Shown in pieces: positions 18,114-33,548 of a DNA stretch of 64,000 nucleotides (positions within the stretch are counted from its first letter, which is position 1; each line of letters begins with the position of its first letter). The notes beneath the pieces are model-generated. The model did no database searches. It saw only the letters and a program-made list of their open reading frames with translations, and was not told where the DNA came from. This stretch comes from Candidatus Iainarchaeum sp. (GTDB lineage: Archaea; B1Sed10-29; WALL01): the NCBI GenBank assembly GCA_021162685.1, contig JAGGYF010000028.1, positions 4,699-68,698 of the forward strand, given 5' to 3'. A program made the position numbers and the translations under genes.

Positions 18114-20888
18114 TTGGTGAGAAGAATGAAAAAAGCCTTAGCAATCCTCTTGTTGGTTTGTGCTGCAGCAGCACTTCCAGACCTAGCAATAGAACGTTTT
18201 TCTCATGAGCTAGGTGAAGATTTTACAGTAAGCTTTACTGCTGTAATTACAAACAAAGGGACTAACTCAACAGAATCCTGTATAATGGCTTTTTCCCAGG
18301 ATGAAGAATGGGCAAATAATAAAATAATAACTATTGGCGCTCTTGAACCAGGCCAGTCCCAAAAAATCAACTGGCAATGGGAGTACTATGAGCCAGGTGA
18401 AAAAAAGCCAGGCATTTTTGTTGACGCATTTAATCCTGAATGCCAATGCTATCAAGGACCTGGTCATGCTGGAAGCATTGAAGAAGAAAACGAGGAAAAC
18501 AATGTCGCTTATCTGAGTTTTGAACTTGAAGCAGAGAATAAGCCGCCAGTAGCGATACTTGCTGTTCCAGTAAGTGTTTGCTTAGAAGGAGGAGAATGCA
18601 CTCCTCCTTGCTCAGTTGGCAAGCCATGCAGGTTTGATTGCTCGCAAAGCTACGACCCTGACGGCTTTATTAGCTGTTGGAGCATTGAATTCGGTGATGG
18701 AACAGCCCAAGCGTCAGAATGCGCAGCAGAAAAAGAAAACAAGCCTGGCGTGATCGAGCACAGCTACACTAAACCAGGAATCTACGAAGTCAAACTTACT
18801 GTCACTGATAACAAGGGAGCTAGTGGTTCAGCTACCGCAGGAATACAGGTCGGTGAAGTCACCAACCAGCCACCAGTAGCAAAAATAAGGCAAGTGGGCG
18901 ACTGCTATGCTTCCCAAAACTGTAATTTTGACGGGTCAAACTCTTATGATGCTGATGGGAAAATAGTGAAGTTTACTGTTGACTTTGGTGATGGTGAAAC
19001 CATTTCCTCAGAAGGCAGTCCAGCAGGGTTCGGGCATTCTTATTCAAGGCCCGGCACTTACGGAGTAACCCTCACCGTATTTGATGACAAAGGAGAAAAA
19101 GGATACGATAAAATTCTTGTCGAAGTTGAAGAATCCCCACTAGAAGAAGGCGTAGTGGAACTAGCAAAATGCCTTGGAGAAAAAAGTGTCCTTTACACGA
19201 ATGATGTCTGTCCATACTGCATAAAACAAAAAAGGCTTTTTGGAAACGCTTACCAGTACTTAACTGTCATGGACTGCGGCATTGACCTCTCCTTATGCAA
19301 AGAAGTGAAAGGTGTACCGACTTGGGAGATAAATGGAGTTAAATACACTGGTTACAAGTCCCTTGAAGAATTAAAGCAATTGAGTGGGTGTGGGGTTCCT
19401 GTTGAGGGATTGTATGCAAAAATCGGGGAGGAGTTTACCCTCTCAATAAACCAGCCAGTAAAAATAGTAGACTATATTGACTCCCATGCAAATCCATTGA
19501 AAATCACGCTACTAAGCATCAACCCGATCTGCCACCCTAAAGAACCGTGTCCCACTGTTATTCCTTATGCCCAAGTAAAAGCAGAGTTTAGTGGAGAAAC
19601 CGAAGTGCGAAAGATTACTACTGGAAGTGAAATAAATTTATTTGGGGTTGTATTGCGCACCATTAGCGTTGACAACATAGCACCGGGGTCAGTAACGCTT
19701 GTTGTCAAAAAGCCAGGAGTTATGTACTGCGAGCCAAACGTGGAATACCATTTTACCAACAAGTGCAAGTGTCCAGAAGGAACAAACTTGGTGTGGTTAA
19801 GCCGCTCTGTTTTTGTCTGCAAGAAAGAAGAGATTGTCCATGCGCGGCTGGGTCAAGCCTTTGAACTAAAGCCCAAGCAAATAGCGAAACTAATGGATTA
19901 TAGAGTCTTGACAATGCGTTTGGACAGCATTGTTTCTTCAGAAAACAAGAAAGCGGCTATTATCACTGTATGGCCAACATATGAGAGAGTCACCTTGGTG
20001 AAAGAGGAACCAATAACAGAAAAAGCAACAATGAGGCCTGTGACAGCCACCGCAGGCAAGGTAGTGACAGGTGTAAAAGTAGTACCAAGTATTACCAAGC
20101 CTGTTGAATCCCCACCAATTGTTCCCAGGCAATACCAAGTTTTAGAAGGAGAGTCAGTTAACGTGTTTGGAGTTAGGATGATGGTTAAAGAATTAACTGA
20201 AAGGTCTGCAGTATTTGTGATAACAAAGCAGACACCTTGGACTTCATGCGACCAAGCATGCAAGCAGAAGGGTTATGCAGGAGGACACTGCTCGTCAGCA
20301 TGTACAGGAGTTAGCATCGGAGAGGAGTTCTGTCCACAGCCAGTATTTGAAGCCAAAGAAGAGACACCCCCTCTTCCTCCAGTGCTGAGTTGCTGCTGCC
20401 AGCCAGAAGAAGAAACAATAAAAATTGTTATTCACAAGGGGTGGAACTTGTTCTCGATGCCTGGTGAAATAAGACCTGTATCAGAAAAGTGTGACAGCAG
20501 GAATTGGAGGGTTTTTGAGTATAACAGGGAAACAAGAAAATTTGAGGCAGTCAAATGGCCTGAGATTGGCAAGGCTTATTGGCTTTATGCTGACAAGCCC
20601 TGCACTGCAGAAGTGAGAATATCAAAACCTGTTTTGCTGGAAGAACTTGAGGGTATTTTGCCTGGTTGGAACCTCGTGCCAGTAGTTCCTGATATGATTG
20701 GAAAATCCCTTGAAGAATTAAGTGATTGTACTGGGCTGAAGGTTTACACATACGATACCAGCAGCAGGAAGTGGATAAAAGTGGATAAAATAACAGAAGA
20801 ATTCTATGGAAGGGGTCTGGCAGTAAAATCAGAGCTCAAATGCTCTTTTAACACACTGCCTTCCATTCCCCCTTTCCCAGAGGAGTGA
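18114..20888 (+). CDS. giant secreted Cys-rich surface protein: signal peptide, CARDB-like domain, two PKD domains, thioredoxin-fold domain with CPYC motif, and a Cys-rich C-terminal region
   Basis: N-terminal signal peptide MKKALAILLLVCAAAALP; PKD signatures CRFDCSQSYDPDG...FGDGT...YTKPGIYEVKLTVTDNKG and NFDGSNSYDADG...FGDGE...YSRPGTYGVTLTVFDDKG; CPYC at nt 19208-19219; many Cys throughout. Confidence 0.8.
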   Translation: MVRRMKKALAILLLVCAAAALPDLAIERFSHELGEDFTVSFTAVITNKGTNSTESCIMAFSQDEEWANNKIITIGALEPGQSQKINWQWEYYEPGEKKPGIFVDAFNPECQCYQGPGHAGSIEEENEENNVAYLSFELEAENKPPVAILAVPVSVCLEGGECTPPCSVGKPCRFDCSQSYDPDGFISCWSIEFGDGTAQASECAAEKENKPGVIEHSYTKPGIYEVKLTVTDNKGASGSATAGIQVGEVTNQPPVAKIRQVGDCYASQNCNFDGSNSYDADGKIVKFTVDFGDGETISSEGSPAGFGHSYSRPGTYGVTLTVFDDKGEKGYDKILVEVEESPLEEGVVELAKCLGEKSVLYTNDVCPYCIKQKRLFGNAYQYLTVMDCGIDLSLCKEVKGVPTWEINGVKYTGYKSLEELKQLSGCGVPVEGLYAKIGEEFTLSINQPVKIVDYIDSHANPLKITLLSINPICHPKEPCPTVIPYAQVKAEFSGETEVRKITTGSEINLFGVVLRTISVDNIAPGSVTLVVKKPGVMYCEPNVEYHFTNKCKCPEGTNLVWLSRSVFVCKKEEIVHARLGQAFELKPKQIAKLMDYRVLTMRLDSIVSSENKKAAIITVWPTYERVTLVKEEPITEKATMRPVTATAGKVVTGVKVVPSITKPVESPPIVPRQYQVLEGESVNVFGVRMMVKELTERSAVFVITKQTPWTSCDQACKQKGYAGGHCSSACTGVSIGEEFCPQPVFEAKEETPPLPPVLSCCCQPEEETIKIVIHKGWNLFSMPGEIRPVSEKCDSRNWRVFEYNRETRKFEAVKWPEIGKAYWLYADKPCTAEVRISKPVLLEELEGILPGWNLVPVVPDMIGKSLEELSDCTGLKVYTYDTSSRKWIKVDKITEEFYGRGLAVKSELKCSFNTLPSIPPFPEE

Positions 20889-21121: not shown

Positions 21122-21550
21122 TCATAAAACAAGCAAAATCAGACTTATTGCCCCTAGTATTACTGCAAACAACTTTGTCGTAGTCAAACTCTCGTGAAAG
21201 AACAATATACCTCCCACAACAGCAATGATAAACGAGAGGCTTCTTATTGTGGAGACAAGTGATACTGGCCCGATATGTATCCCATATAGAAATGAAAAAT
21301 ATGCTATCCCCGCAACAACTCCTATCAGTATTATGAGAGGCAGTTCGTTTTTTACACCCATAATATCTGTCTTTCCGAGTATGAGTGAAAGAGCAAGAAC
21401 TGTTAGAAACATAAATAATGTTATCCACGTTACGACGATGAATCTATCCCCTTTGGCAACTTGTATAATAATGTTAGGATACCATAGAGAATCATAGCAG
21501 AAACTGCGGGGATTAACCAGTTCATCACAACACCCCCATAAGCAATGCAA
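21122..21550 (-). CDS. EamA/DMT-superfamily small membrane protein (4 TM)
   Basis: Four hydrophobic helices with an EamA-like pattern; the true start is likely internal, since the annotated N-terminal 45 aa are not hydrophobic. Confidence 0.45.
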   Translation of the reverse strand: MHCLWGCCDELVNPRSFCYDSLWYPNIIIQVAKGDRFIVVTWITLFMFLTVLALSLILGKTDIMGVKNELPLIILIGVVAGIAYFSFLYGIHIGPVSLVSTIRSLSFIIAVVGGILFFHESLTTTKLFAVILGAISLILLVL

Positions 21551-22634
21551 TTCCTAAACCAAGTATAATTATCCCTGCTACAAGGTGCAAGTGCCTAAGC
21601 TTTCCTTTCCTCCACTTCTCAACACGCTCTGGTGACAATCCTTTGTAAACCATAAATGTTATGAAAAGCATTGGGAGAATGAATATGGCATTATACAAAA
21701 GAAGCAACATAATTGCCAATGCCTGTGTTGCTCTTCTCGCTAATAATCCCAAAACAACAATATATGGACCACTTGTACAAGGCAACAAAAACAAACTGAC
21801 AATGAACCCAATAAAGAATGCACCTGGAGCACTTGTAACTGATTTTATTATGCGTTTTAGTGTTGGCCTCCATGACTGTGGGACTTCCATAACAAAGCCG
21901 CCACCACCATATCTCAGATAATCTTTAATGTTTAGTAAACCAACAACAACTGCAAGTGCACCTACTATATAGTAAATGGTTCGCGTTGCACCTGCCCATT
22001 GTATTGCAGAAAATAATCCTAAACCCATCAGAAAGTAAGAGATAAATATTGCTAATGAAAAAGCAATTCCTGCTTTTAACACCCTGAACCTATCACCAGC
22101 CACAAGGATTGTTGTAAGTAGGATAATAAGGACTGCAAATGCACACGGATTTATGGCATCAACAGCAGAACCAGCAATAACTGCTGAAACCAGTGAAAGA
22201 AGATTAACGCCCTCAACAGGCGATACCTCTTTTGTTGTAACGAATGTTGCATTTTCTATCTTTTCTCCAGGAGATGGACAGCCATATGTGATACACTCTT
22301 TAATTGTATTTTCTATGGCTTTTGGTGTTGGTTCACCAAAGATACCACGTGGATCCCATCCAACAATGACTTTGTTACCTATAAATAACGTAGGCACTCC
22401 TTGTATTGTTGTGTTGTATGCTTCTGCAGTCCTTTTAAACAATGCCCGGTTTGTTGTGTTTCTGTATATCTCAAATCGCTCAGCATGGAACTCGGGGTAT
22501 TTTGCCTCCATCTGCTCCAAAAAGGGCTCTTCTTTTGCACAATGCGGGCATCCTTGGCCCCAGAAGAAATATGCTGTTACATTATATGCAAAAACAGACG
22601 AAATGAGCAATAAAAGGAGGAATTTTCCCTTCAT
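21525..22634 (-). CDS. thiol:disulfide oxidoreductase: signal peptide + thioredoxin-fold (CPHC) domain fused to a CcdA/DsbD-like transmembrane domain
   Basis: WGQGCPHCAKEEPFL Trx motif; CcdA-type conserved Cys in TM helices (INPCAFAVL, LPCTSGPY); start moved to MKGKF (ATG at 22634 on the minus strand) with SD AAGGAGTGA. Confidence 0.75.
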   Translation of the reverse strand: MKGKFLLLLLISSVFAYNVTAYFFWGQGCPHCAKEEPFLEQMEAKYPEFHAERFEIYRNTTNRALFKRTAEAYNTTIQGVPTLFIGNKVIVGWDPRGIFGEPTPKAIENTIKECITYGCPSPGEKIENATFVTTKEVSPVEGVNLLSLVSAVIAGSAVDAINPCAFAVLIILLTTILVAGDRFRVLKAGIAFSLAIFISYFLMGLGLFSAIQWAGATRTIYYIVGALAVVVGLLNIKDYLRYGGGGFVMEVPQSWRPTLKRIIKSVTSAPGAFFIGFIVSLFLLPCTSGPYIVVLGLLARRATQALAIMLLLLYNAIFILPMLFITFMVYKGLSPERVEKWRKGKLRHLHLVAGIIILGLGIALLMGVL

Positions 22635-22732
22635 AGTATCACTCCTTTTATTAATCAACCGAAATATTTATATATAATTTTGAATATAAATTCATTACTG
22701 TATTGAATATATATTCAAAAGGAGGTGAATAT

Positions 22733-23065
22733 ATGCCATATGGAGATGGAACAGGACCTTTAGGATTAGGACCAATGACTGGAAGAGGTCTTGGATACTG
22801 CGCTGGATATAATGCTCCAGGTTTTGTTTTTGGCCCAGGTTGGGGCAGAGGAAGAGGCTGGCGCAGAGGATGGGGCAGAGGATTTGGATGGAGGTTTTGG
22901 GGTGCACCATATTGGAGAGCACCATATCCACAACAATACTGGAAACCAACAAAGGAGGAAGAAAAGACCATATTACAAGAAGAACTAAAAGCTTTAGAAG
23001 AAGAAATGAAGGCAATTGAAGAGGAAAGAAAAGCCATCCAGAAAAAACTTGCAGAGCTGAAGTAG
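22733..23065 (+). CDS. DUF5320 family protein (Gly/Arg/Trp-rich N-terminus, C-terminal coiled coil)
   Basis: GPLGLGPMTGRGLGYCAGYNAPGF...GWGRGRGWRRGWGRGFGW, then a coiled coil EEEKTILQEELKALEEEMKAIEEERKAIQKKLAELK; strong SD AAAGGAGGTGA. Confidence 0.6.
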   Translation: MPYGDGTGPLGLGPMTGRGLGYCAGYNAPGFVFGPGWGRGRGWRRGWGRGFGWRFWGAPYWRAPYPQQYWKPTKEEEKTILQEELKALEEEMKAIEEERKAIQKKLAELK

Positions 23066-23497
23066 ATGCCAAGACCAAGAAAACCCAGGTTGGTTGCAGG
23101 CGTCCCATCTATAACATATTTCAAACCTGCTGGCGTGCCTTTGCGTGGGGTTGATGAGGTAGTGTTAACAGTTGAGGAATATGAGGCTATAAAACTAAAA
23201 GACCTCGAAGGAAAGACACAGGAAGAAGCAGCAAAAGAGATGGATGTATCGCAACCAACATTCTTTAGAATATTAGAAAGCGCAAGGAAAAAGATTAGCG
23301 ATGCAATTGTTAATGGAAAGGTAATACGTATAGAAGGAGGTAGTTATATGGTAGGAAGAGGAAGAATGGGAGGGAGCGCACTTGGACCAGGAGGTTACTG
23401 TGTATGCCCAAAGTGTGGATATAAGGTTCCACATCAGAGGGGTGTTCCGTGCTATAGTATGACATGTCCAAAGTGTGGAACACAGATGACAAGGTGA
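23066..23497 (+). CDS. DUF134 (UPF0251) HTH DNA-binding protein with C-terminal Cys4 zinc ribbon
   Basis: MPRPRKPR...F.P.G.P...[39 protein letters not shown] is the DUF134 signature; C-terminus CVCPKCG...CPKCG. Confidence 0.75.
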
Positions 23498-23501
23498 AAA
23501 G

Positions 23502-23864
23502 ATGAAAGTCATCAGGAACCCGAATTGGATAGAAGGAAAGGGCGAGATGAAATACAAGAAGAGGATTTTGATGGAGAATGTCCCACCTTCAGTTAATTTA
23601 ATAGAGGATGTTGTGATACCACCAGGTGGGAAGATCCCCTCACATGCACACAAGGCAACAACCGAGTTGTTTTATATAACAAGTGGGAAGGCAAGGATGA
23701 AAGTCCAGAATAAAGAGTTTGAGGTTAACCCAAAAGATATGGTTTTAGTTGAGGTTGGGGAGAGTCATAGCTTTATCAATAATTCAGATGAAGATTTTGA
23801 AATGATAGTGCTTAAAATAAATTTCAGAAAAGATGACGCAATTTTATATGAGGTGAAAAAATGA
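23502..23864 (+). CDS. cupin domain protein
   Basis: Cupin beta-barrel motifs with conserved His (PPGGKIPSHAHKATTELFYITSGKARM...GESHSF). Confidence 0.6.
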   Translation: MKVIRNPNWIEGKGEMKYKKRILMENVPPSVNLIEDVVIPPGGKIPSHAHKATTELFYITSGKARMKVQNKEFEVNPKDMVLVEVGESHSFINNSDEDFEMIVLKINFRKDDAILYEVKK

Positions 23865-24259
23865 GAATAGCAGTAGCTTCGTCAGGACCAGGGCTTAATG
23901 CAGAAGCAAGCCCAATGTTTGGGAGATGTCCCTTTTTTGTAATTGTCAACATTGAGGAAAACAATATAAAGGAAGTTAAAAGCATTCCAAATACTGCAAC
24001 AGCATATCGTGGCGGAGCAGGTATATCGGCAGCAGAACTTGTGGGCAATGAGAACGTTGATGCAGTAATAGCTGGTGCAATAGGACCAAGGGCGTTTGAT
24101 GTGCTTAAACAGCTTGGGATAAAGCAATACATTGGCGTGCCAGGAACCGTAGAAAAAAACATTGACCTACTACTTAAAGGAGAGCTTAAAATGGTCGGCA
24201 GTCCAACAGGACCAATGAGGATGCCTCCTGGAAGAAGGGGCAGGAGAGGAGGTCAATAA
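23861..24259 (+). CDS. NifX/NafY/NifB-C-terminal-like dinitrogenase FeMo-cofactor-binding family protein
   Basis: MRIAVASSGPGL...FGRCPFFVIVNIEEN...GAG...AELV...VDAVIAGAIGPRAFDVL..LGIK matches the Nitro_FeMo-Co fold family. Confidence 0.75.
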   Translation: MRIAVASSGPGLNAEASPMFGRCPFFVIVNIEENNIKEVKSIPNTATAYRGGAGISAAELVGNENVDAVIAGAIGPRAFDVLKQLGIKQYIGVPGTVEKNIDLLLKGELKMVGSPTGPMRMPPGRRGRRGGQ

Positions 24260-24260
24260 A

Positions 24261-24470
24261 ATGCCAGAAGGAGTACCACGAACTGATGAAGAAAGAAGGG
24301 AAAGGCACAAGGAGAAATATGGAACAGAGGAAATCCCAGAAGAACGAAAAGGAAAGGCATCAAAAGCACTTGAGCAGAAGAAGAATCTGATTTTGGCTAT
24401 AAAGGTAGTGCTGGTGCTTGCAATTCTTTACTTTCTCTGGATAATTGTCAAGAGGGGTTGGGTTACTTGA
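24261..24470 (+). CDS. small membrane protein (single C-terminal TM)
   Basis: 69 aa with a charged N-terminus and one TM helix; sits inside the translationally coupled operon. Confidence 0.35.
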   Translation: MPEGVPRTDEERRERHKEKYGTEEIPEERKGKASKALEQKKNLILAIKVVLVLAILYFLWIIVKRGWVT

Positions 24471-25711
24471 ACAAGCTGAAACAAGGAGAGAGGGCAGCAG
24501 CAAAAGTGAGTGTGGGAACCCTAATCTTATCGCTAACAAAGGGAATTGTTGGATACATCACAGGAAGCACTGCTCTGGTAACAGATGCATTTCATTCCTT
24601 AGCAGACCTTATTGCTGCTGCGTCCTCCTGGTTTGGCCTAAAGATCTCACAGAGAAAACCAGATGAAATATTCCCTTACGGATATTACAAAGCAGAAAAT
24701 CTCGCTGGTCTGGTAGTTGCGTTGGTGATACTATACGCTGCTGCAACCCTACTTTTTGAAGGATTTTCCCGTATTGGTAAACCTGCAACAATACATGAAC
24801 CAATGCTCGCAATTGCAACGTCTATTGTATCCATTGGAATCGCATTTCTTTTCTATAAATATCTTAAGGCAGTAGGAGAGAAGATCAATTCGCCATCGTT
24901 AAAAGCAAATGCTAATGATAAACTTGTAGATATGGCATCTTCTTCGTTGGTGTTTATTGCCCTTGTGGCATCTTACCTAAACATACCTTACATTGAAGGA
25001 ATCGTGACAGTATTGATCTCGTTTTTAGTGATGAAAATTGGCCTAGAAACCGCAAAAGATTCTGTTCTGGCACTTATGGATGTCAGTCCGAGCAAGGATA
25101 TTGAAAAAAGGCTGGAATCTGTTTTATTATCTGTAAAAGGTGTAAGAAAAATAAAAAATCTCAAGCTTAGGAAAGCTGGGCCATTTGTATTTGGTGATGT
25201 TGAAATAGAAGTAAAAGGAAGTATTGATGTAAAAAGGGCACACAGTATAACAGAGGAGATACAAAAGAGTGTGAAGAGGAACATAAAAGAGATAGAGTTC
25301 ATTACAGTACATGTTGAGCCACATAAACCAAGAAGGCAAAAGGTTGTTGTTCCTGTGGAGAATGCAGATGGTATGCGTTCAAAAATAGTGAAGCATTTCG
25401 GGAGAGCCAGATACTTTGTTCTTGTTGAGCTGGATAATAACAAGGTAAAGAAACACAAGGTAGTAAAAAATCCATTTATTGGTGAAAAGATAAGGGCGGG
25501 TCTAAAAACTGCTGGATTTCTTGCTGAAAAAGGGATTGATGCTGTGATAACAAAATCAATAGGTGAGATCTCATTCCATACGCTAAGAGACCACTTTGTG
25601 GAAATCTACCACGCAAAAGGTGAGAATGTTGATGATACTATAAAGCTTTTTATTAGAGGGAAACTTAGACTACTTCGCAGACCGACAAAAGAAGCTGGCG
25701 GAATTGCATGA
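24458..25711 (+). CDS. cation diffusion facilitator (CDF) metal transporter fused to a C-terminal NifX-like cofactor-binding domain
   Basis: N-terminal 6-TM CDF with HSLADL motif and cytoplasmic CTD; the C-terminal 110 aa (VVVPVENADGMRSKIVKHFGRARYFVLV...GIDAVITKSIGEISFHTLRDHFVEIY) resemble the NifX-like protein at 23861; TTG start. Confidence 0.75.
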   Translation: MGYLNKLKQGERAAAKVSVGTLILSLTKGIVGYITGSTALVTDAFHSLADLIAAASSWFGLKISQRKPDEIFPYGYYKAENLAGLVVALVILYAAATLLFEGFSRIGKPATIHEPMLAIATSIVSIGIAFLFYKYLKAVGEKINSPSLKANANDKLVDMASSSLVFIALVASYLNIPYIEGIVTVLISFLVMKIGLETAKDSVLALMDVSPSKDIEKRLESVLLSVKGVRKIKNLKLRKAGPFVFGDVEIEVKGSIDVKRAHSITEEIQKSVKRNIKEIEFITVHVEPHKPRRQKVVVPVENADGMRSKIVKHFGRARYFVLVELDNNKVKKHKVVKNPFIGEKIRAGLKTAGFLAEKGIDAVITKSIGEISFHTLRDHFVEIYHAKGENVDDTIKLFIRGKLRLLRRPTKEAGGIA

Positions 25712-26544
25712 GGATATGTATAACAGGAGGAAAAGGTGGGACAGGTAAGTCATTGATAGCAACATCGCTCGCCTATCATCTTGGAAAAAATCACAAGGTG
25801 CTTCTTGTTGACCTAGATGTTGATTGCCCAAATGACCATCTTATACTGTCAACAAAAAGGGAGGTGTTAAAGGAGGTAAAACAGACCATTCCTGTGCTTA
25901 ACGAAAACAGATGTAAAAAATGTGGGATATGCAGTAATATATGCAGGGAGAATGCCATAGTATTCATAAGAAAACGATTTCCTATCTTCCTTCTTGACCA
26001 GTGTAATGGATGTAAAGCATGTATGGTTGCATGCCCTGCAAATGCAATAGAGGAAGGAGAGCGCGCATATGGTGTAATCTATAAGGGAAAAAATGAACGG
26101 ATTGACATGCTAGTAGCAGAACTCGTGCCAGGACAAAAAGAGGGCTCTCCTTTGGTACATGAAGCAATAAAACTTGTGGGTGAGAACAAAAAATACGATT
26201 TTGTTATTATGGATACTGCAGCAGGAATGCATTGTACTGTCATATCTGCACTTAGAGAATGCGACTATATACTCGCTGTAACCGAACCCACACCATTGGG
26301 CGCACATGATCTCAACCTAATCCTTGATTTAATTGATGAATTAAACATTCCTTCTGGTGTTATATTAAACAAGAGGGGCATTGGAAACGAGAAAGAGGTA
26401 AGAGAAATCACAAAAAGGCATGGAAAGAAGATTGTTGCAGATGTCCCATACAGTAAAGAGGTCATGGAAGCGTATTCCAAAGGCATCCCAGTACCGATTC
26501 GGTTTGTTGAGAAGTTGGTCTCATTTGTGGAGGAGATGAAATGA
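25708..26544 (+). CDS. MinD/Mrp-family P-loop ATPase with inserted double 4Fe-4S ferredoxin domain (COG1149-like, CooC-related)
   Basis: Deviant Walker [10 protein letters not shown]; two Cys clusters [11 protein letters not shown] and [12 protein letters not shown]. Confidence 0.8.
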
Positions 26545-26927
26545 AGGGTATATATGTACTCATTATAGATATTTCAAAGGATGTAACAATCAGAGTTGGC
26601 TCGCTTGGTAATATGCTTTTCAAAAAAGGTACGTATGCATATGTTGGATCTGCCCAAAACAATGTTGAAAAGAGGATTAGAAGGCACATGAATAAGAAGA
26701 AGAAATTATTCTGGCACATTGATTATCTTCTGAAAGAACCAGGGATTAGAATAAGAAGGGTGTTATACAAAAAAGCACCAAAAACAGAGGAATGCAGAAC
26801 AGCATCTGTTATCAGCAAAAGAGGGGAGGCAATTCCACAATTCGGATGCTCTGATTGTAAATGCAATAGCCATCTTTTTAAGATCACAGAGATGCCACTA
26901 AGAGGGTTTAGAGAGGTGATTACCTGA
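26541..26927 (+). CDS. DUF123 family GIY-YIG-like domain protein
   Basis: KGIYVLII...[20 protein letters not shown] matches the archaeal DUF123 / GIY-YIG clan signature; C-terminal Cys pairs (CSDCKC). Confidence 0.6.
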
Positions 26928-26995
26928 ATCCTATTTACGGTCCTGTACCCTCATGGAGACTTGGAGTTTCACTTGGAGTAGACCCTGTATGCAAA

Positions 26996-27685
26996 ATGCC
27001 AAAAATTTGCTCATTTGATTGTATCTATTGTCAGTTGGGAAGAACGGTCGTAAAAACGACAAAAAGGGAGAAATTTGTTGAAGCGGAGATTGTTCGCAGA
27101 GAGTTGAAGAAGGCATTACGTATTGTAACACCAGACGTTATAACATTCTCTGGGGTATCAGAACCAACACTTGCATCAAATATTTCAGACATCGTGAATG
27201 TAATAAAAGAGGAAACCGATATCCCTGTTGCTATTCTAACAAATGCTTCCCTTATATACAAAAAGGAGGTTATGGACGACCTCATGCATTTTGATATTGT
27301 ATGTGCGAAACTTGATGCTCCAAACCAAAAGATATTTGAGCAGGTAAACAGACCATCATACGGAATAAAAATTGATGATATTATCAACGGAATAAAAGAA
27401 TTTAGAAAAGGATTCACGGGGAAACTCGCACTACAAATTATGTTAGTTAACGAAAATAAACCATACGTGAAAGAAATTGCTAACATAGCAAGGGATATAA
27501 AACCTGATGAGATTCAACTTGATACTCCTCTTAGACCCTGTCCTGTACCTGCCCTTCCAGAGGAGGAGATGTATGAGGCAAAGCAATGCTTTGATGGATT
27601 GAATGTGATAATGGTGTATGATAGGAAAAAACCAGAGGCAAAAGCAATAGATAAGTATGAGACACACCTGAGGAGACCCACATGA
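26996..27685 (+). CDS. short radical SAM enzyme (CxxxCxxC)
   Basis: CSFDCIYC at residues 5-12 of the ATG-initiated ORF; the in-frame upstream peptide YGPVPSWRLGVSLGVDPV (open from 26912, after a TAG) resembles the conserved N-terminus of this radical SAM subfamily, so the real start is probably a non-ATG codon near 26924-26933. Confidence 0.7.
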   Translation: MPKICSFDCIYCQLGRTVVKTTKREKFVEAEIVRRELKKALRIVTPDVITFSGVSEPTLASNISDIVNVIKEETDIPVAILTNASLIYKKEVMDDLMHFDIVCAKLDAPNQKIFEQVNRPSYGIKIDDIINGIKEFRKGFTGKLALQIMLVNENKPYVKEIANIARDIKPDEIQLDTPLRPCPVPALPEEEMYEAKQCFDGLNVIMVYDRKKPEAKAIDKYETHLRRPT

Positions 27686-28566
27686 TAAAAATCACAGTAG
27701 TTTCTGGAAAGGGAGGAGTTGGAAAGAGTAGCATAGCAGCATCCATGGCACTGGTCTTGTCAAAAAACAGAGATATTGTTGCTGTTGATTGTGATGTTGA
27801 TGCACCAAACCTTGGGCTGTTGCTTGGTGTAAAAAAGGAGGGCTTCTCATACAAAGAAGTAGGTACAAAAGAGAAAGCGTCTCTCATAGAAGATAGGTGT
27901 ATAAGATGTAGAAAATGCGTGGATATCTGTGTGTTTTCAGCTATCTCATGGGATAACCTACCGATATTTGATAAATATCTGTGTGAGGGATGCGGAGCGT
28001 GCCAACTTGTATGTCCTGTTGATGCAATTGAACTCATAAAAGTGCAGAATGCATTTATTGGATTTACTGACACACAGTATGGGTTCCCTGTTGTTGGTGG
28101 TCAGCTAAAACCAGGAGAATCTGGGTCTGGTGATGTAGTAACATTAGTAAAGGAAAAGGCAGAGGAGATAGCTAACAAAAGAGGGATTGAGACAATGATT
28201 ATAGACTCTGCAGCAGGTATTGGTTGTCCTGTGATTGCCTCAGTAACGGGTTCAGATTACGTTGTCGCTGTCACAGAACCAACACCCGCAGCATTTAGTG
28301 ACCTTAAGAGGGTTTTGGAAGTTGTTGAACATTTCAACATACCATATGGGATAATTATCAATACATGGAACACCAATCCAGCGTTTACAGAAAAGATTGA
28401 GAAATTCGCTTCTGAGAACGAAATAACGTTACTTGGAAAAATCCCATATGACAAAGCCTTTATTGATGCCTTGGTTCAGCTGATGCCTGTTGTTGCTTAC
28501 GATAAGAGGTTTAAAAAATTGTTTAAAAGTATTCTAGAAAAAACTCTGGCAGAGGTAGAGAAATGA
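27682..28566 (+). CDS. second MinD/Mrp-family P-loop ATPase with inserted 4Fe-4S ferredoxin domain
   Basis: Deviant Walker A SGKGGVGKS; CIRCRKCVDIC and CEGCGACQLVCP. Confidence 0.8.
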   Translation: MIKITVVSGKGGVGKSSIAASMALVLSKNRDIVAVDCDVDAPNLGLLLGVKKEGFSYKEVGTKEKASLIEDRCIRCRKCVDICVFSAISWDNLPIFDKYLCEGCGACQLVCPVDAIELIKVQNAFIGFTDTQYGFPVVGGQLKPGESGSGDVVTLVKEKAEEIANKRGIETMIIDSAAGIGCPVIASVTGSDYVVAVTEPTPAAFSDLKRVLEVVEHFNIPYGIIINTWNTNPAFTEKIEKFASENEITLLGKIPYDKAFIDALVQLMPVVAYDKRFKKLFKSILEKTLAEVEK

Positions 28567-29363
28567 AAAGGATTATTATGTTAATGGTGTTGACTATGCT
28601 TTTGGGTTGCATTCAGAAAACAGAAAAATTTGAGGGGGTTTCTGCTGCTTCTGGCAGCATAAGGATCATAACACTTTATGACAACAATCCTTACGATGAA
28701 CGTTTTGAAACGGGTTTTGGCTATTCTTCATTAATTCAAGCTGGAAACAATACTATACTCTTTGACACAGGAGGAGATAGCATCACACTTTTAAGAAACA
28801 TGGAAAAGGCTGGGGTAAAGCCTGAAACAATAAACATTATTGTGCTTTCCCACATACATGGTGATCATACTGGCGGTCTTCTTGGCTTACTTGAGCATAC
28901 GAAAGCCCCCATTGTATACCTTCCATCATCGTTCCCTCAAGATTTTAAAGAAAAGGTAAAGACCAATGCAAAACTTGTTGAAGTCAGTGCGCCATCTGAA
29001 ATAAGCAAGGGGATTTATTCAACAGGAGAGCTTGGAACATGGATAAAAGAACAGTCACTAATCATAAAAAGCAGTAAGGGAATTATAATAATTACAGGGT
29101 GCGCTCATCCAGGGATTGTTGAAATCGTTAAGAAAGCAAAGGAGATTACTGGCGAAAGGGTTTACTTGGTTCTGGGCGGGTTTCATCTCAATGGCGCAAG
29201 TGAGAATGAGATCAGGAACATTGTTAGGGAATTCAGGGAGCTTGGAGTGGAAAAAGTAGCACCATGCCATTGTACTGGAGAAACTGCCACAAAAATTTTT
29301 AAAGAAGAATATAAAGAGTATTTCATAGAAAACGGGGTTGGAAAAACAGTAGTGGTAGAATGA
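28563..29363 (+). CDS. metallo-beta-lactamase-fold lipoprotein
   Basis: Lipobox-like LLGC after a signal peptide; HxHxDH motif SHIHGDHTGG. Confidence 0.7.
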   Translation: MKRIIMLMVLTMLLGCIQKTEKFEGVSAASGSIRIITLYDNNPYDERFETGFGYSSLIQAGNNTILFDTGGDSITLLRNMEKAGVKPETINIIVLSHIHGDHTGGLLGLLEHTKAPIVYLPSSFPQDFKEKVKTNAKLVEVSAPSEISKGIYSTGELGTWIKEQSLIIKSSKGIIIITGCAHPGIVEIVKKAKEITGERVYLVLGGFHLNGASENEIRNIVREFRELGVEKVAPCHCTGETATKIFKEEYKEYFIENGVGKTVVVE

Positions 29364-30193
29364 TTTTGGAAGCTTTAACAGAGACTTTGAAACTCCTTTT
29401 CATAGTTTTTATTCTTATGGTTGTAATTGAATATCTAGTCCTCAGATTTGAGAAAAAGATCAGAAGATATATTACAGGGAATCCTTTCACCCAGTATCTT
29501 GTGGCATCTGCGCTTGGTGCTATTCCAGGATGTATTGACGCATTTTTTGTCGTCTCTTTGTATACTGCTGGAATAGTAGGCTTTGGGGCCCTGGCTGCTG
29601 TAATGATTTCAACAGCAGGAGACGAGGCATTCATCATGCTTGCTATGATACCTGACACAGCCCTAATAATATTTGGAATCTGCTTTGTATTAGGCATTGT
29701 TGGTGGGTTCCTCGCTGACATTTTTGTTAAGAAGTTTAACCTCAAACTCAGTAAGAGTTGTTGCGTTCCAGTGCATAAAAAAGAAAAGGTAATAACATTG
29801 AAGCATTTTGTCAAAGAACATGTTCTCGGCCACATAGTGAAAAAGCACATGCCAAAGCTGTTCCTCTGGCTTTTTTTCACACTCCTTGTTATAAACTGGG
29901 CGCTTGCTAACCTTGAATTGCAATCCCTTCTTCCCAAAAACTACCTCTGGCTACTTGTTTTCGCAGCAATAGTTGGGATAATACCTGAATCAGGCCCCCA
30001 TATAATGTTTGTTGTGCTTTTTTCCAAGGGATTGATTCCCTTTTCAGTGCTCCTTGTGAACACTATAAGCCAGGATGGCCATGGTTTGCTCCCCTTGCTC
30101 TCACACTCAATAAAAGACACTATTTACCTACAAGTATTTACAACATTATTTGCCCTAGGGGTTGGAATAATTTTGTTTCTCTTAGGTGTTTAG
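29360..30193 (+). CDS. polytopic membrane protein, putative metal/metalloid permease (two repeats with Cys/acidic motifs)
   Basis: About 8 TM; internally repeated motifs GCIDAFF and TAGDEAF reminiscent of permease families. Confidence 0.45.
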
Positions 30194-30195
30194 GT

Positions 30196-30771
30196 ATGTT
30201 GGATGAAATTGCTGAAGAAATAAGAAAATGTAGAAGATGTGACCTATGGAAAACGAGAAAGAACACCGTACCAGGAGAAGGAAATGAAAATGCAGAGGTC
30301 ATGTTTATTGGAGAAGCACCTGGGAGAAAAGAAGATGAAACAGGAAAACCATTTGTTGGTGCTGCTGGAGATGTCTTGAACGAAATGCTTGATGGTATTG
30401 AATTGAAAAGAGAAGATGTTTTTATAACAAGTGTGTTGAAGTGTAGGCCCCCAAACAATAGAAATCCTAGACCAGATGAAATTGCTGCCTGTTCCTTATT
30501 TCTTGAAGAACAGATGAGAACTATAAAGCCAAGAGTAATTTGCACATTGGGGAATGTGGCAACTGCCTATCTCTTAAGGAGGTTTGGAATGAAACCGCAA
30601 CCAATTAGCAGAATACACGGAAAACCAATAAATATTGATACACTTGATTTGCATTTCACACTCATTCCGATGTATCATCCAGCAGCTGTCATATACAATG
30701 CTGGGATGAGGAATGCCTTAGTCAACGATTTTAAAACACTGAAGAAAGTGATTTATAGAAGAACGAGGTAG
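30196..30771 (+). CDS. udg: uracil-DNA glycosylase family 4 (Fe-S type)
   Basis: CRRCDL...[17 protein letters not shown] family 4 signature; H-P-A motif near the C-terminus. Confidence 0.85.
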
Positions 30772-30772
30772 T

Positions 30773-32836
30773 ATGGTTATGCCTGAGAAGATACGAAAAA
30801 GGGATGGGAGTGTTGTAAAATTTGACCAGAGGAGGATAACAAAGGCCATAGAAAGAGCAATAAAAGCCATAGGAAAAAAGGATGGAAAACTTGCTAAAAA
30901 ACTCTCGGATAGGGTTGTCAAAAAACTTGGAAAGGTAAAAATCACAACAGTTGAGAGGGTACAAGACGTTGTTGAAGAAGTTTTGGTGGAGTACGGCAAT
31001 GTAAAACTTGTGAGAGCGTATATTAGGTACAGATACCAACATGAAAAACTTAGAAAAACAAAGAGCCTATTTGAAGAAACCGATAAAATCATTGATAGTT
31101 ATCTGAAACAAAAGGATTGGAGAGTTAGGGAAAACAGTAACATCACGTATTCATTTGCTGGGCTCGTCATGTATGTATCAAATGCAGCAATTGCAAACTA
31201 CACTCTTGATAGAATCTATCCAGCGGAGATATCAAAAGCGCACAAATCAGGAGATATACACATACATGACTTACAGTTCGGATTAACAGGCTATTGCGCT
31301 GGTTGGTCACTAAAACAATTATTGCTTGATGGATTTGGTGGAGTTCCTGGAAGAACATCATCAAAGCCTGCAAAGCACTTTGATACCGCATTGTTGCAGA
31401 TGGTGAACTTTTTAGGTACGCTACAAAATGAATGGGCTGGAGCAATGGCATTTAGCTCTGTTGACACATACCTAGCACCATTTGTAGCCAAAGATAAACT
31501 CAGCTATAAGCAAGTACTCCAGGGCATGCAGAAGTTCATTTTCAATCTGAATATAACATCAAGGTGGGGCGGGCAGACACTATTCACAAATGTTACATTT
31601 GATTGGAAAGCACCAGAAGACCTAAGAGAAGAGCACATTATTATCGGAGGCAAACAATTAAGGCAGACATATGGCGAGTTCCAAGATGAAATGGACATGA
31701 TAAACAAGGCATTCATAGAGATCATGATGCAAGGAGATGCAAATGGAAGACCTTTCACTTTCCCAATACCAACATATAACATAACAAAAGAATTTGATTG
31801 GAATTCAGAAAATGCTGATCTACTGTTTGAGATGACAGCAAAATATGGGCTGCCCTACTTCTCAAACTTTGTTAATAGTGACTTGGATCCAAAAGATATA
31901 CGAAGCATGTGCTGCCACCTCAGACTGGATTTGAGACAACTTGAGAGGAATATCACTGGTGGATTATTTGGCTCTGCTGAACTTACTGGTTCTGTTGGCG
32001 TTGTAACCATAAATATGCCAAGGATTGGGTATCTGAGCAAAGATGAGGTAGAATTTTTTGAGAGACTTGATAAACTTATGGAGATAGCAAAAAACTCATT
32101 AGAGATAAAAAGAAAGGTTGTAGCAAGAAACATGGAAAATGGGTTGTTGCCATACTCAAAACGGTATTTGGGCAGTCTAGCAAACCACTTCTCAACTATT
32201 GGTCTTGTGGGAATGAATGAGGCTTGCCTTAATCTCTTCGGAAAGGACATAAGTACCAAAAAGGGAAAAGCATTTGCTGAAAGAACATTGAAACACATGC
32301 TTGAAAGATTGAAGGATTTCCAGGAAGAAACAGGAAACCTCTACAATCTAGAAGCAACACCTGCAGAAGGGTCATCATATAGATTGGCTTATCTTGACAA
32401 AAAGAAGTATCCAAAGATCATCACAGCAAGTAAGGAAGTTCCTAGATATACAAACTCAACGTGGCTGCCTGTGGATAAAACAGACGACGTTATCTATGCG
32501 CTAAAACATCAAGAAGCATTACAAACATTGTATACTGGTGGTACTGTTTTCCATGCATTTTTTGGAGAACGATTGAATAGCGGGAAGGCATGTAAGCGAT
32601 TTGTTAAAAAGGTCATGTATAAAACAAGGATTCCATACCTAACAGTTACACCAACATTTAGTATTTGCCAGGAGCATGGATACATTGTTGGTGAAGAAAA
32701 AACCTGTCCTATATGCGGAAAAGAAACAGAGGTGTATAGTAGAGTTGTTGGATATTTCAGACCAGTAAAGGATTGGAACCCTGGGAAGCAGCAGGAATTC
32801 AAGGAGAGAAAAACATACAATCCAAAGAAGGCGTAG
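30773..32836 (+). CDS. nrdD: anaerobic ribonucleoside-triphosphate reductase (class III RNR)
   Basis: N-terminal ATP-cone; C-terminal Zn ribbon CPICGKE plus glycyl-radical region (RVVGYFRPVKDWNPGKQQEFKERK). Confidence 0.9.
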   Translation: MVMPEKIRKRDGSVVKFDQRRITKAIERAIKAIGKKDGKLAKKLSDRVVKKLGKVKITTVERVQDVVEEVLVEYGNVKLVRAYIRYRYQHEKLRKTKSLFEETDKIIDSYLKQKDWRVRENSNITYSFAGLVMYVSNAAIANYTLDRIYPAEISKAHKSGDIHIHDLQFGLTGYCAGWSLKQLLLDGFGGVPGRTSSKPAKHFDTALLQMVNFLGTLQNEWAGAMAFSSVDTYLAPFVAKDKLSYKQVLQGMQKFIFNLNITSRWGGQTLFTNVTFDWKAPEDLREEHIIIGGKQLRQTYGEFQDEMDMINKAFIEIMMQGDANGRPFTFPIPTYNITKEFDWNSENADLLFEMTAKYGLPYFSNFVNSDLDPKDIRSMCCHLRLDLRQLERNITGGLFGSAELTGSVGVVTINMPRIGYLSKDEVEFFERLDKLMEIAKNSLEIKRKVVARNMENGLLPYSKRYLGSLANHFSTIGLVGMNEACLNLFGKDISTKKGKAFAERTLKHMLERLKDFQEETGNLYNLEATPAEGSSYRLAYLDKKKYPKIITASKEVPRYTNSTWLPVDKTDDVIYALKHQEALQTLYTGGTVFHAFFGERLNSGKACKRFVKKVMYKTRIPYLTVTPTFSICQEHGYIVGEEKTCPICGKETEVYSRVVGYFRPVKDWNPGKQQEFKERKTYNPKKA

Positions 32837-32843
32837 TGGTTGG

Positions 32844-33548
32844 ATGGAATTTAAAGGATTACAAAAGTTAACATTAATAGACTATCCTGGAAAATTGGCA
32901 TGCATAGTATTTACAGGAGGCTGTAATCTCAGATGTCCATTCTGCCAAAACAAGGACCTTGTTCTGAATTATGAAAAACTGCCATCAATATCAGAAGAAG
33001 AAATCATTAAGTTCCTTGAATCAAGAAGGAAATGGTTGGATGGGATTGTTATTACTGGTGGAGAGCCAACAATACACAGTGACCTACCAGAATTTATAAA
33101 AAAAGTTAAAGAGAGGAGGTTTCTTGTCAAGTTGGACACAAATGGCTCAAACCCGGCTATGTTGAAGATGCTTATTGAAAATAGACTCATTGATTATATC
33201 GCAATGGATGTCAAAGCACCATTGGAATGGGAAAAATACAGTAAAGCATCTGGCATAAAAAACAGAGAGATATTTGAGAACATCTTGAAGAGCATAGACA
33301 TACTTATGCACTCAAACATTGATTATGAGTTCAGGACAACTGTTGTTCCAGGATTGCACACAGAGGAGGACATCTTAAAAATTGCTGAGCAGTTGAAAGG
33401 AGCAAGGGCATATTATCTACAACAGTTTAGGCCAAGAACTACGTTGGACCCAAACTATGAAAAGATAGAGCCATATCCAAGAAAAATGCTTGAGAAACTT
33501 GTTGAAAAGATAAAAGGTTACTTTAAACATTGTGGTGTCAGAGGCTAA
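32844..33548 (+). CDS. nrdG: anaerobic RNR activating enzyme (radical SAM)
   Basis: CNLRCPFCQN radical SAM motif; immediately downstream of nrdD. Confidence 0.85.
   Translation: MEFKGLQKLTLIDYPGKLACIVFTGGCNLRCPFCQNKDLVLNYEKLPSISEEEIIKFLESRRKWLDGIVITGGEPTIHSDLPEFIKKVKERRFLVKLDTNGSNPAMLKMLIENRLIDYIAMDVKAPLEWEKYSKASGIKNREIFENILKSIDILMHSNIDYEFRTTVVPGLHTEEDILKIAEQLKGARAYYLQQFRPRTTLDPNYEKIEPYPRKMLEKLVEKIKGYFKHCGVRG

Follow-up and report, generated by a model that had tools for sequence, protein, structure and literature searches.

A Diapherotrites gene cluster read as a variant of the ORP-type cluster of anaerobes, with a suggested role in iron or iron–sulfur handling

The 64,000-nucleotide stretch of DNA analysed here (‘the window’ throughout, numbered from its first letter) derives from Candidatus Iainarchaeum sp., a DPANN archaeon of Candidatus Diapherotrites (GenBank assembly GCA_021162685.1, contig JAGGYF010000028.1, forward-strand positions 4,699 to 68,698). 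Between 22733 and 30193 it is filled by twelve open reading frames (ORFs), all on the + strand and all with the coordinates given in a first-pass annotation, which had read them as a translationally coupled operon and as the dispersed parts of a NifB-like metallocofactor assembly line. Profile searches run on each ORF, with domains called by Pfam gathering scores and NCBIfam cut-offs, bore out every domain that it had proposed. Comparison with related loci leads us to lean, though only slightly, towards another reading, in which the locus is a Diapherotrites variant of the ORP-type cluster of anaerobes, buffers or delivers iron or iron–sulfur (Fe-S) species, and is probably not a line for a special cofactor.

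Related neighbourhoods were collected by scanning one genome per GTDB species for DUF5320, the family of the first gene in the run. At least 481 matches were confirmed and 80 loci taken, and all ORFs within 7 kb of DUF5320 were clustered without prior labels across 84 loci, labels being checked with Pfam and NCBIfam.

The junctions of the window's cluster are close. Six are ATGA overlaps, at 23861, 25708, 26541, 27682, 28563 and 29360, and the seventh overlap noted at the outset, at 24458, measures 13 nt, or 4 nt (TTGA) if the downstream gene starts at the alternative position 24467; the latter start is favoured because an identical database protein, P0241, has 414 aa, a length that fits it. 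Most cluster junctions are preceded by a GGAGG-like motif, and 4-nt overlaps occur at 6/10 of them compared with 8/64 in the rest of the window (Fisher p = 0.002), in a window that is compact as a whole (median same-strand gap 1 nt). The genes look co-transcribed, as had been claimed, with overlaps enriched, but the 3′ end of the proposed single transcript is left undefined by spacing, since equally tight spacing runs on through genes for a family-4 uracil-DNA glycosylase (UDG), NrdD and NrdG (30196–33548). These trail the cluster at gaps of 2, 1 and 7 nt, respectively, and given such gaps they may share its transcript.

DUF5320 (22733–23065) passes its family model (PF17253) with 106.9 bits against a cut-off of 27, and is built in three parts: an invariant N-terminal motif, a cationic Gly/Arg/Trp segment and an acidic, coiled-coil-like C-terminus. 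The N-terminal motif reads MPxGDGTGPxGxGPxTGRGxGyCaG, with a single invariant Cys; across the 43 sequences of alignment A1 the invariant positions are M1, P2, T7, G8, P9, G11, G13, T16, G17, R18, G21 and C23. Residues 1–72 comprise 20 Gly, 9 cationic, 17 aromatic and 9 Pro residues, with a pI of 10.6. All of the best 120 DUF5320 homologs are single-domain proteins, with no NifX–DUF5320 fusion among them, and such fusions surfaced only in the locus survey, where NifX-like domains joined to the C-terminal half of DUF5320 were seen in L036_5, L041_3 and L079_13 (the first verified with Pfam as PF02579 plus PF17253, 51 bits). The DNA encoding the Gly/Arg/Trp segment is rich in G runs (GGTTGGGGCAGAGGAAGAGGCTGG..., window 22800–22930), which is probably why DUF5320 and DUF134 are named in a survey of archaeal G-quadruplexes (PMC7565180).

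The second gene (23066–23497) encodes a DUF134 helix-turn-helix (HTH) protein (PF02001, 93.7 bits against a cut-off of 27) that also gives sub-threshold matches to the HTH of sigma-70 region 4, and that falls below the NCBIfam equivalog PRK04217 (66.6 against 115 bits). Its C-terminus is a Cys-rich ribbon, CxCPxCGx4Hx2GxPCx4CPxCG, holding six Cys and one His, and on these features the protein is a candidate regulator and sensor. A search of the PDB with the DUF134 protein returned no meaningful relative. The ribbon behaves as a module: elsewhere it is found fused to DUF134, to CDF transporters, to NifX-like domains (as in L056_6), or free in proteins of 60–90 aa, and other fusions join DUF134 to NifX (L070_3) or NifX to a Gly/Arg tail (L023_10 and L074_10). 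The free proteins of 60–90 aa, present in approximately 15 loci (for example L069_4, L037_9, L013_4 and L008_1), open with MPGGNGTGP, continue with a Gly/Arg stretch and also carry the six-Cys/one-His ribbon; above threshold they matched nothing in Pfam or NCBIfam. An apparent ‘DUF134’ entry in a Bacteroides iron-stimulon table was discarded as a prefix match to a different DUF number.

Further downstream, a gene at 23861–24259 encodes a free NifX/IssA/ORP-type protein (PF02579, Nitro_FeMo-Co, 76.2 bits), in which an FGRC motif is followed by a 22-aa tail, first Pro-rich and then Gly/Arg-rich (PPGRRGRRGGQ), containing 6 Gly, 5 Arg and 4 Pro; Gly/Arg-tailed NifX-like proteins were present in 10/51 NifX-bearing loci. 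Its best match among solved structures is MTH1175 (6e-27, 97.5 bits), assigned by Vaccaro et al. to the IssA clade (PMC5524996), and Desulfovibrio gigas ORP (2WFB) is matched at 3.9e-13 (52.9 bits, residues 2–115). The next ORF, at 24261–24470, encodes a tail-anchored protein of 69 aa, charged at its N-terminus and ending in a single transmembrane helix; it matched nothing in Pfam or NCBIfam, and its counterpart in locus L001, from a second Diapherotrites metagenome-assembled genome (MAG), is a 72-aa ORF between the NifX and CDF::NifX genes.

A second NifX-like domain is carried by the transporter that follows, CDF::NifX (24458–25711, or from 24467), a protein of 417 aa from the first start that unites Cation_efflux (PF01545, 165.8 bits), ZT_dimer (PF16916, 71.2 bits) and Nitro_FeMo-Co (64.8 bits). 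It belongs to the CDF superfamily (TIGR01297, 237.7 bits against a cut-off of 82.35), and all CDF equivalogs score below their cut-offs (MamB 186/350, MamM 185/350, FieF 131/420, MntE 133/500 and ZitB 76/408); reading a metal specificity from these scores was rejected for that reason. The best 120 homologs all have the three domains, those that are named coming mostly from DPANN and in some cases from the candidate phyla radiation (CPR), Bathyarchaeota and Thermoplasmatota, so that CDF::NifX appears to be a populous, mostly DPANN family of its own, defined by the extra C-terminal NifX-like domain. In L011_15 and L021_1, the CDF protein carries Gly/Arg/Trp and Cys-ribbon sequence instead of the NifX domain.

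Two genes encode MinD-type P-loop ATPases, paralogs A (25708–26544) and B (27682–28566), each a CbiA/ParA domain with an insert after switch I that bears two CxxCxxCxxxC [4Fe-4S] (Fer4) motifs. The two are 33% identical and represent two ancient subfamilies maintained in a conserved order, A preceding B in 25 of the 30 two-gene loci. Such ordered pairing fits an A/B heterodimer, in keeping with the co-purification of Orp3 and Orp4, and domain fusions seen in other loci are further indirect evidence of a physical complex. In 73/73 family members the eight Cys of the ferredoxin motifs are invariant, and so is a ninth (C176 in A, C182 in B); in B both C37 and C182 are invariant among close homologs. 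The ninth Cys lies seven residues after the Walker-B Asp, a spacing we take to be that of Asp125 and Cys132 in switch II of NifH, where Cys132 is a ligand of the bridging cluster.

An AlphaFold2 model of B (pLDDT 95.2) found its nearest folds in the cores of MinD, FlhG, FleN, NifH, Cfd1 and ApbC, at TM-scores of about 0.6, and sequence and fold searches of the PDB returned no solved structure with a two-cluster ferredoxin insert. Since only ATPase cores were returned, the fold search does not tell MinD-, NifH- and Mrp-like mechanisms apart. Both proteins fall short of the MinD family cut-offs (minD_arch 53.5 and 73 bits against 201.75; minD_bact 50 and 61 bits against 212.9).

Conservation of this neighbourhood, for which the first-pass annotation had proposed looking, was extensive. 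The surveyed loci came from DPANN, Asgard, Thermoplasmata, Methanosarcinales, Theionarchaea, CPR, Firmicutes, Thermotogae, Planctomycetes, Omnitrophota, Spirochaetes, Deltaproteobacteria and others, and the core showed synteny across archaeal and bacterial genomes. NifX-like proteins were present in 51/84 loci, MinD-Fer4 ATPases in 46/84 and DUF134 in 44/84, in agreement with the earlier statement that these three co-occur; the ATPases are usually paired, since the 46 loci hold 80 such genes. In L001 the order is DUF5320, DUF134, NifX, small ORF, CDF::NifX, MBL (metallo-β-lactamase fold), MinD-Fer4, radical SAM, MinD-Fer4, and in L002, from Woesearchaeota, a 113-aa ORF matching the DUF5320 motif is followed by DUF134, NifX, a DsbD-like gene and two MinD-Fer4 genes.

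Among the other recurrent neighbours are proteins of iron and Fe-S metabolism and its control. Mrp/NBP35 proteins (MrpORP included) occurred in 27/84 loci, and three Mrp-NifX proteins, from L055, L070 and L074, score above the cut-off of the NCBIfam MrpORP equivalog (519–529 bits against 450); NifU_N/IscU was found in 14 loci, Fur in 11 (directly upstream of DUF5320 and on the same strand), FeoB and FeoA in 9 each (divergent in Asgard loci), DtxR in 7 (directly downstream of DUF5320), and OrpR-like PAS-sigma54 activators in 6, all bacterial and adjoining DUF5320 clusters. The remainder of the list comprises MBL proteins of the window's subfamily (20 loci), radical SAM proteins of the window's family (20), ARMT1/DUF89 (15), NifX-methyltransferase (12), Pyr_redox_2 (10), DsbD-like (9) and thioredoxin (6). 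No nitrogenase-like protein, carbon monoxide dehydrogenase (CODH), hydrogenase or Mo/W enzyme was among the neighbour clusters present in ≥4 of the 84 loci. It is this tie to iron regulators and iron uptake genes across the 84 loci that speaks for iron or Fe-S handling rather than an exotic cofactor.

Three patterns in the survey deserve separate mention. Six Asgard loci (L012, L019, L053, L060, L078 and L080) have a fixed order in which FeoB, FeoA and FeoA lie divergent from DUF5320 and DtxR, the latter pair adjoining a radical SAM-IscU-Mrp operon and a NifX-MinD-MinD operon, with a palindrome, described below, in several of the promoters; the arrangement suggests a compact iron regulon. The DPANN-type arrangement, CDF::NifX included, was also seen in the CPR groups Saccharibacteria, Nealsonbacteria, Parcubacteria and Portnoybacteria (L008, L023, L032 and L083; P0012 and P0356), where the ATPases share 58% identity with the archaeal protein, against 54–63% in other DPANN phyla, which suggests transfer between domains among two groups of ultra-small organisms. 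CoA_binding_2 proteins are encoded between the paired ATPase genes or close to them (L043, L073, L047, L076, L035, L033 and others), and the recurrent Pyr_redox_2 proteins of 10 loci resemble CoA-disulfide or persulfide reductases; together they hint at thiol or persulfide chemistry tied to the system.

A control region of 74 bp (22659–22732) separates DUF5320 from the divergent DsbD-like gene (21525–22658, − strand) and is common to both. A TATA-like TTTATATA (22667–22674) and a ribosome-binding site GGAGGTGA (22721–22728) can be read in it, together with two copies of a 14-bp palindrome, TGAATATAAATTCA at 22681–22694 and TGAATATATATTCA at 22704–22717. The two copies are the sole matches in the window at ≤2 mismatches (chance mean 0.61), a count that is weak by itself because 13/100 shuffles give ≥2 matches.

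The comparative evidence for the palindrome as an operator is strong. TGAATW4ATTCA has 36 matches in 1.2 Mb of loci, nearly all in the promoters of genes that belong to the system: the site precedes DUF5320 in 14 loci and DUF134 in 3, lies where Mrp-IscU and NifX-MinD operons diverge in 2, and faces FeoA in 3. Besides the window, 18 loci carry it upstream of DUF5320, DUF134, NifX-MinD or Feo genes, and the 250 nt preceding DUF5320 hold it at 50 times the density seen in the rest of the sequence. In L012 and L060 the Feo, DUF5320, Mrp-IscU and NifX-MinD promoters all carry the same palindrome. Its range takes in DPANN, Asgard, Methanosarcinales MAGs, Theionarchaea and one deltaproteobacterium, and in the 84-locus survey it was never found in loci linked to Fur or to enhancer-binding proteins. 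DUF134 is present in 10 of the 18 palindrome-bearing loci (several of the remainder are on incomplete contigs), and DtxR adjoins the palindrome-bearing Asgard loci. In sequence, the arms of the palindrome are similar to the Fur box of deltaproteobacteria, TGAAAATNATTTTCA (PMC545781), and Fur-linked loci have Fur-box-like sites between a TTGACA promoter and fur; a literature search on the palindrome found nothing relevant. From the regulators and sites at these loci, we conclude that one gene set stands under DUF134, DtxR, Fur or OrpR according to lineage, the last three taking the position of DUF134 in other lineages.

The ORP cluster has been known since 2007–2011 as an anaerobe-specific, archaea-derived gene set. 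In D. vulgaris Hildenborough it comprises Orp3, Orp4, Orp5, Orp8 and Orp9 (MrpORP), and it shares with the window the paired MinD ATPases with two [4Fe-4S] motifs, the single-domain PF02579 protein beside them and the distribution among anaerobes, the window's ATPases being likened to Orp3 and Orp4 by architecture and shared clusters. DUF5320 clusters elsewhere resemble ORP in holding bona fide MrpORP and OrpR-like activators. Orp3 and Orp4, which have two [4Fe-4S] motifs apiece, form a complex with Orp8 that was co-purified, carries Fe-S and is supplied with clusters by MrpORP (PMC6345978); OrpR is a redox-sensing sigma54 activator of the orp operons, of PAS-[4Fe-4S] type, and an archaeal origin has been proposed for the system (PMC8359166). 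The window differs in several respects: no Mrp homolog was found in the 64 kb and the MrpORP model matched only partially (33–62 bits against 450); the window, being archaeal, encodes no enhancer-binding protein, and in place of control by sigma54, OrpR and IHF it has the DUF134 HTH-ribbon protein and a palindrome; and CDF::NifX, radical SAM, exported MBL, DsbD-like, cupin, DUF123 and ArsP_2 genes are extra.

The second point of reference is IssA, a thioferrate iron-sulfur store of Pyrococcus furiosus (PF2025) within the NifX-like family (PMC5524996), with which the window shares the PF02579/IPR003731 domain, its best solved relative, MTH1175, sitting in the IssA clade. IssA carries in cis a tail of about 70 aa, with 15 Gly, 7 cationic, 14 aromatic and 11 Pro residues, a pI of 10.7 and W, G and R as key residues (PMC5524996), whereas the free NifX-like protein of the window has only 22 aa at this position and the long segment sits on the separate DUF5320, which adds the Cys-containing N-terminal motif and the coiled coil. 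No ATPases have been described for IssA; the window has an ATPase pair. Two NifX/IssA homologs of Methanococcus voltae are up together with FeoAB and DtxR during growth on pyrite (PMC8516115).

To our knowledge, IssA is the only characterised iron-sulfur store. The remaining comparisons are more distant. NifB, NifX and NafY have the PF02579 fold in common with the window, where radical SAM and NifH-fold ATPases lie nearby, but the window's radical SAM protein is not NifB-like, nif genes are missing from the window and related loci, and, going by the clades described in PMC5524996, the window's NifX-like domains belong to the company of MTH1175 and ORP and not to that of the Nif proteins. The ATPases share with Mrp/NBP35/ApbC and NifH/CooC the deviant Walker A motif GKGGxGKS, the fold and, with NifH, the switch II Cys, and are unlike Mrp in having the ferredoxin insert after switch I and in lacking the CxxC motif of Mrp. 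Cation_efflux and ZT_dimer are common to the CDF protein and to FieF/YiiP, MamB/MamM and MntE, to which the window adds the NifX-like domain. The earlier statement that no function had been assigned to such a neighbourhood therefore needs qualifying: the core has the architecture of ORP (PMC6345978, PMC8359166) and is of a known kind, and the NifX-like family also takes in IssA (PMC5524996). A literature search on DUF134, DUF5320, UPF0251 and COG1149 yielded nothing functional; the DPANN variant as such, with its CDF::NifX, DUF134-ribbon, exported MBL and DsbD-like proteins, seems to be new in so far as the searchable literature goes, in which we likewise did not find the link between DUF5320 and the IssA tail, the operator, or the association with Fur, DtxR and Feo.

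On the iron/Fe-S reading, the parts might work together as follows. NifX/IssA-type domains would hold anionic Fe-S species, one of them free and the other at the cytoplasmic end of the CDF transporter, and DUF5320 would give in trans the cationic Gly/Arg/Trp segment that IssA has in cis, oligomerising through its coiled coil. ATPases A and B would form a heterodimer with two [4Fe-4S] clusters next to switch I, and a switch II Cys, in each subunit; from this placement of inserts and Cys, ATP binding and hydrolysis, together with electron input, would be expected to gate cluster loading, reductive release or transfer. CDF::NifX would couple the Fe-S pool to movement of Fe(II) across the membrane, iron being the presumed metal, and DUF134 would act on the two palindromes, which flank the predicted transcription start, its six-Cys ribbon sensing metal or cluster status. 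The roles of DUF5320 as IssA tail, of A and B in gating, of DUF134 as binder of the palindrome and of the CDF protein in iron transport are inferred.

A bolder version, which we put forward as a minority possibility, would make DUF5320, the NifX/IssA-type protein and the A/B ATPases a widespread, metal-regulated machine of strict anaerobes that keeps iron and sulfide as an anionic Fe-S polymer or cluster pool wrapped in protein and mobilises it with ATP and electrons, with DUF5320 as an IssA tail supplied in trans, DUF134 as a new family of sensors recognising TGAATATATATTCA, and CDF::NifX as the iron link at the membrane. If true, such a machine, present in DPANN, CPR and Asgard lineages among others, would do for anaerobes what ferritin and an Fe-S carrier do together. 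The window and its 84 relatives in any case join ORP and IssA, adding DUF5320 as a hallmark first gene whose chemistry is that of the IssA tail, a candidate regulator that bears a Cys-rich sensor module, an operator common with Feo promoters, and an invariant switch II Cys. Retention in the reduced genomes of DPANN and CPR argues for a basic housekeeping role in the anaerobic metal economy, and the system bears on iron and sulfide handling in early and minimal cells.

Several observations weigh against the iron/Fe-S reading. The window itself has no Mrp, IscU, Fur, DtxR or Feo gene, so the link to iron is by homology to other loci, and the frequencies at those loci are conditional on the DUF5320 anchor, on crude ORF calls and on many incomplete contigs. 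Two of the loci, L004 and L071, are from the same genome, and L001 and L002 were reached via the ATPase rather than DUF5320. Members of the Fur family can sense Zn, Mn or peroxide, and the Fur gene of L005 follows a ZnuA-type transporter. CDF proteins are normally exporters, which is awkward beside co-regulated Feo uptake genes, and the palindrome has more than one candidate binder, namely DUF134 (encoded in the operon), DtxR or a Fur-like protein encoded elsewhere. The match between the DUF5320 Gly/Arg/Trp segment and the IssA tail is one of composition, the tail being taken from its published description. ORP of D. gigas as isolated holds a Mo-Cu-S cluster and not Fe-S, and the published label of the orp operons is ‘cell division’ (both PMC6345978).

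NifX-like domains bind FeMo-co precursors in nitrogenase maturation, and a dedicated heterometal cofactor line, with counterparts of NifB, NifX and an insertase of NifH/CooC type serving a client metalloenzyme, was the original proposal for the locus. It is less well supported than the iron/Fe-S reading and we consider it unlikely. One radical SAM family does recur, in 20/84 loci, and the ATPases have the SIMIBI fold in common with NifH, CooC among their sequence matches and a switch II Cys at NifH-like spacing. However, the radical SAM protein (26912–27685, PF04055, 54.7 bits) is missing from 64/84 loci, and neither it nor a full-length family member matched a NifB model in NCBIfam at E ≤ 1e-3; its named matches are far below cut-off (viperin 59.9/180 bits, MoaA 51.6/325, and the W-maturase likewise), and its best PDB match, MoaA, reaches only 3e-06. 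Nitrogenase structural genes are missing from the window, as had been stated, and so are nitrogenase-like ones; none of the client enzymes named above recurs among the neighbour clusters of ≥4 loci, where Fur, DtxR, FeoAB, IscU and Mrp do. The breadth of the cluster in DPANN and CPR, together with its co-regulation, points to general iron homeostasis, and the picture of a disassembled NifB line is not supported.

The remaining explanations are rated lower. That the genes form a metal or metalloid detoxification-efflux operon seems to us decidedly unlikely. In it a CDF exporter, the ArsP-type permease, a DsbD-like shuttle of reductant and the exported MBL lipoprotein would act under DUF134 as metal-sensing regulator, the NifX proteins would serve as metal chaperones in the cytosol and the MinD proteins as pump ATPases resembling ArsA. 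The CDF superfamily and ArsP_2/arsenic_eff matches are above cut-off, weak ArsA_ATPase matches occur on both ATPases, DPANN and CPR loci repeatedly hold DsbD-like genes and ORFs that match ArsP_1 weakly, and the MBL is exported only in Diapherotrites, but the ArsA matches span only the P-loop (residues 1–37), ArsP_2 occurs in the window alone, most core-bearing loci are without any transporter, and the recurrent partners are IscU, Mrp and Feo uptake genes. Handling of thiomolybdate or thiotungstate with copper, by NifX-like proteins that bind Mo(W)-Cu-S clusters, is improbable. It draws on the match to 2WFB (3.9e-13), on the S2MoS2CuS2MoS2 cluster bound non-covalently by Orp8 homologs (PMC6345978) and on the weak similarity of the radical SAM protein to MoaA and the W-maturase; set against these, similarity to MTH1175 is far above that to ORP (97.5 against 52.9 bits), Mo/W transporter and molybdopterin genes are not recurrent, and the adjacent regulators are of iron type. 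A function in cell division or positioning, as proposed for the Desulfovibrio ORP complex, agrees with the published orp annotation and with MinD, FlhG and FleN as nearest folds, yet the archaeal MinD model gives only 53–73 bits against 201.75, and the partners are metal-binding proteins and metal regulators, division genes not being recurrent in the neighbourhoods; we hold it very improbable. Chance juxtaposition of unrelated genes by genome compaction could account for the median gap of 1 nt, for the spacing that continues into UDG, NrdD and NrdG and for three genes found only in the window, and is scarcely credible for the core, where it is largely refuted by synteny across DPANN, Asgard, Thermoplasmata, CPR, Firmicutes, Planctomycetes and others, by domain fusions among the components and by the common promoter palindrome.

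Outside the core, the radical SAM, MBL and DsbD-like genes are recurrent accessories. The radical SAM protein is not short, as it had first been described, but mis-started: the family motif YGPVPSxRLGxSLG precedes CX3CX2C, and the N-terminal motif of the window protein, YGPVPSWRLGVSLGVDP, lies in frame upstream of the called ATG at 26996, in the stretch from 26912. An in-frame TAG (26909–26911) precedes the motif, with no ATG, GTG or TTG between the two, and the upstream stretch overlaps the 3′ end of the DUF123 gene in the −1 frame. A non-canonical start (CTG at 26924 or ATT at 26933), a frameshift fusion and an assembly indel are all possible; fusion of DUF123 to the radical SAM protein was considered and is unsupported, since DUF123 is in no other locus.

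The MBL-fold protein (28563–29363; PF00753, Lactamase_B, 62.9 bits) belongs to the TM1679/7DCK subfamily (7DCK at 1e-46 and TM1679 at 7e-33 in the PDB), which is represented in 20/84 loci. A signal peptide and lipobox (MLLGC) can be read only in the proteins of the window and L001, the two Diapherotrites loci, and family members elsewhere are cytoplasmic; export of the protein is accordingly predicted for these two loci only. The DsbD-like membrane protein has an N-terminal thioredoxin-like domain and weak matches to DsbD_2/DsbD_TM below the Pfam cut-off. Its family lies in or beside DUF5320 clusters in 9/84 loci, and within the operon in L002, and the gene is a probable accessory of the system.

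The unity of twelve genes that had been claimed is not supported, the DsbD-like gene sharing the control region from outside the original coordinates and three of the twelve being local only. These are a small cupin (23502–23864; Cupin_2, PF07883, 60.6 bits), the GIY-YIG-like DUF123 protein (26541–26927; PF01986, 99.9 bits) and an ArsP_2/‘arsenic efflux’ permease (29360–30193; PF11449, 144.7 bits; NF037962, 144.8 bits against a cut-off of 100). None of them was found in the other surveyed loci, the cupin being missing even from the syntenic L001, and as they are seen only in the window they are taken to be lineage-specific additions. In L007, L014, L021, L030, L031, L038 and L042, DUF5320 is followed by ORFs that match ArsP_1 weakly and below threshold.

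Among the genes that trail the cluster, family-4 UDG and NrdG are [4Fe-4S] proteins, and a UDG gene is also near the homologous cluster in L001. An Rfam scan of the window returned two tRNAs only and no riboswitch, and a scan for promoters and terminators of bacterial type gave fewer sites than shuffled sequence, a result that is uninformative for an archaeon. Upstream of the cluster, at 18114–20888, lies the gene for a secreted, Cys-rich protein of 924 aa that contains CARDB and two PKD domains and is probably displayed on the surface of the DPANN cell. Over the whole window (1–64000) strand bias is strong, with 82/99 crude ORFs on the + strand, and the GC skew is positive in every 2-kb bin but one.

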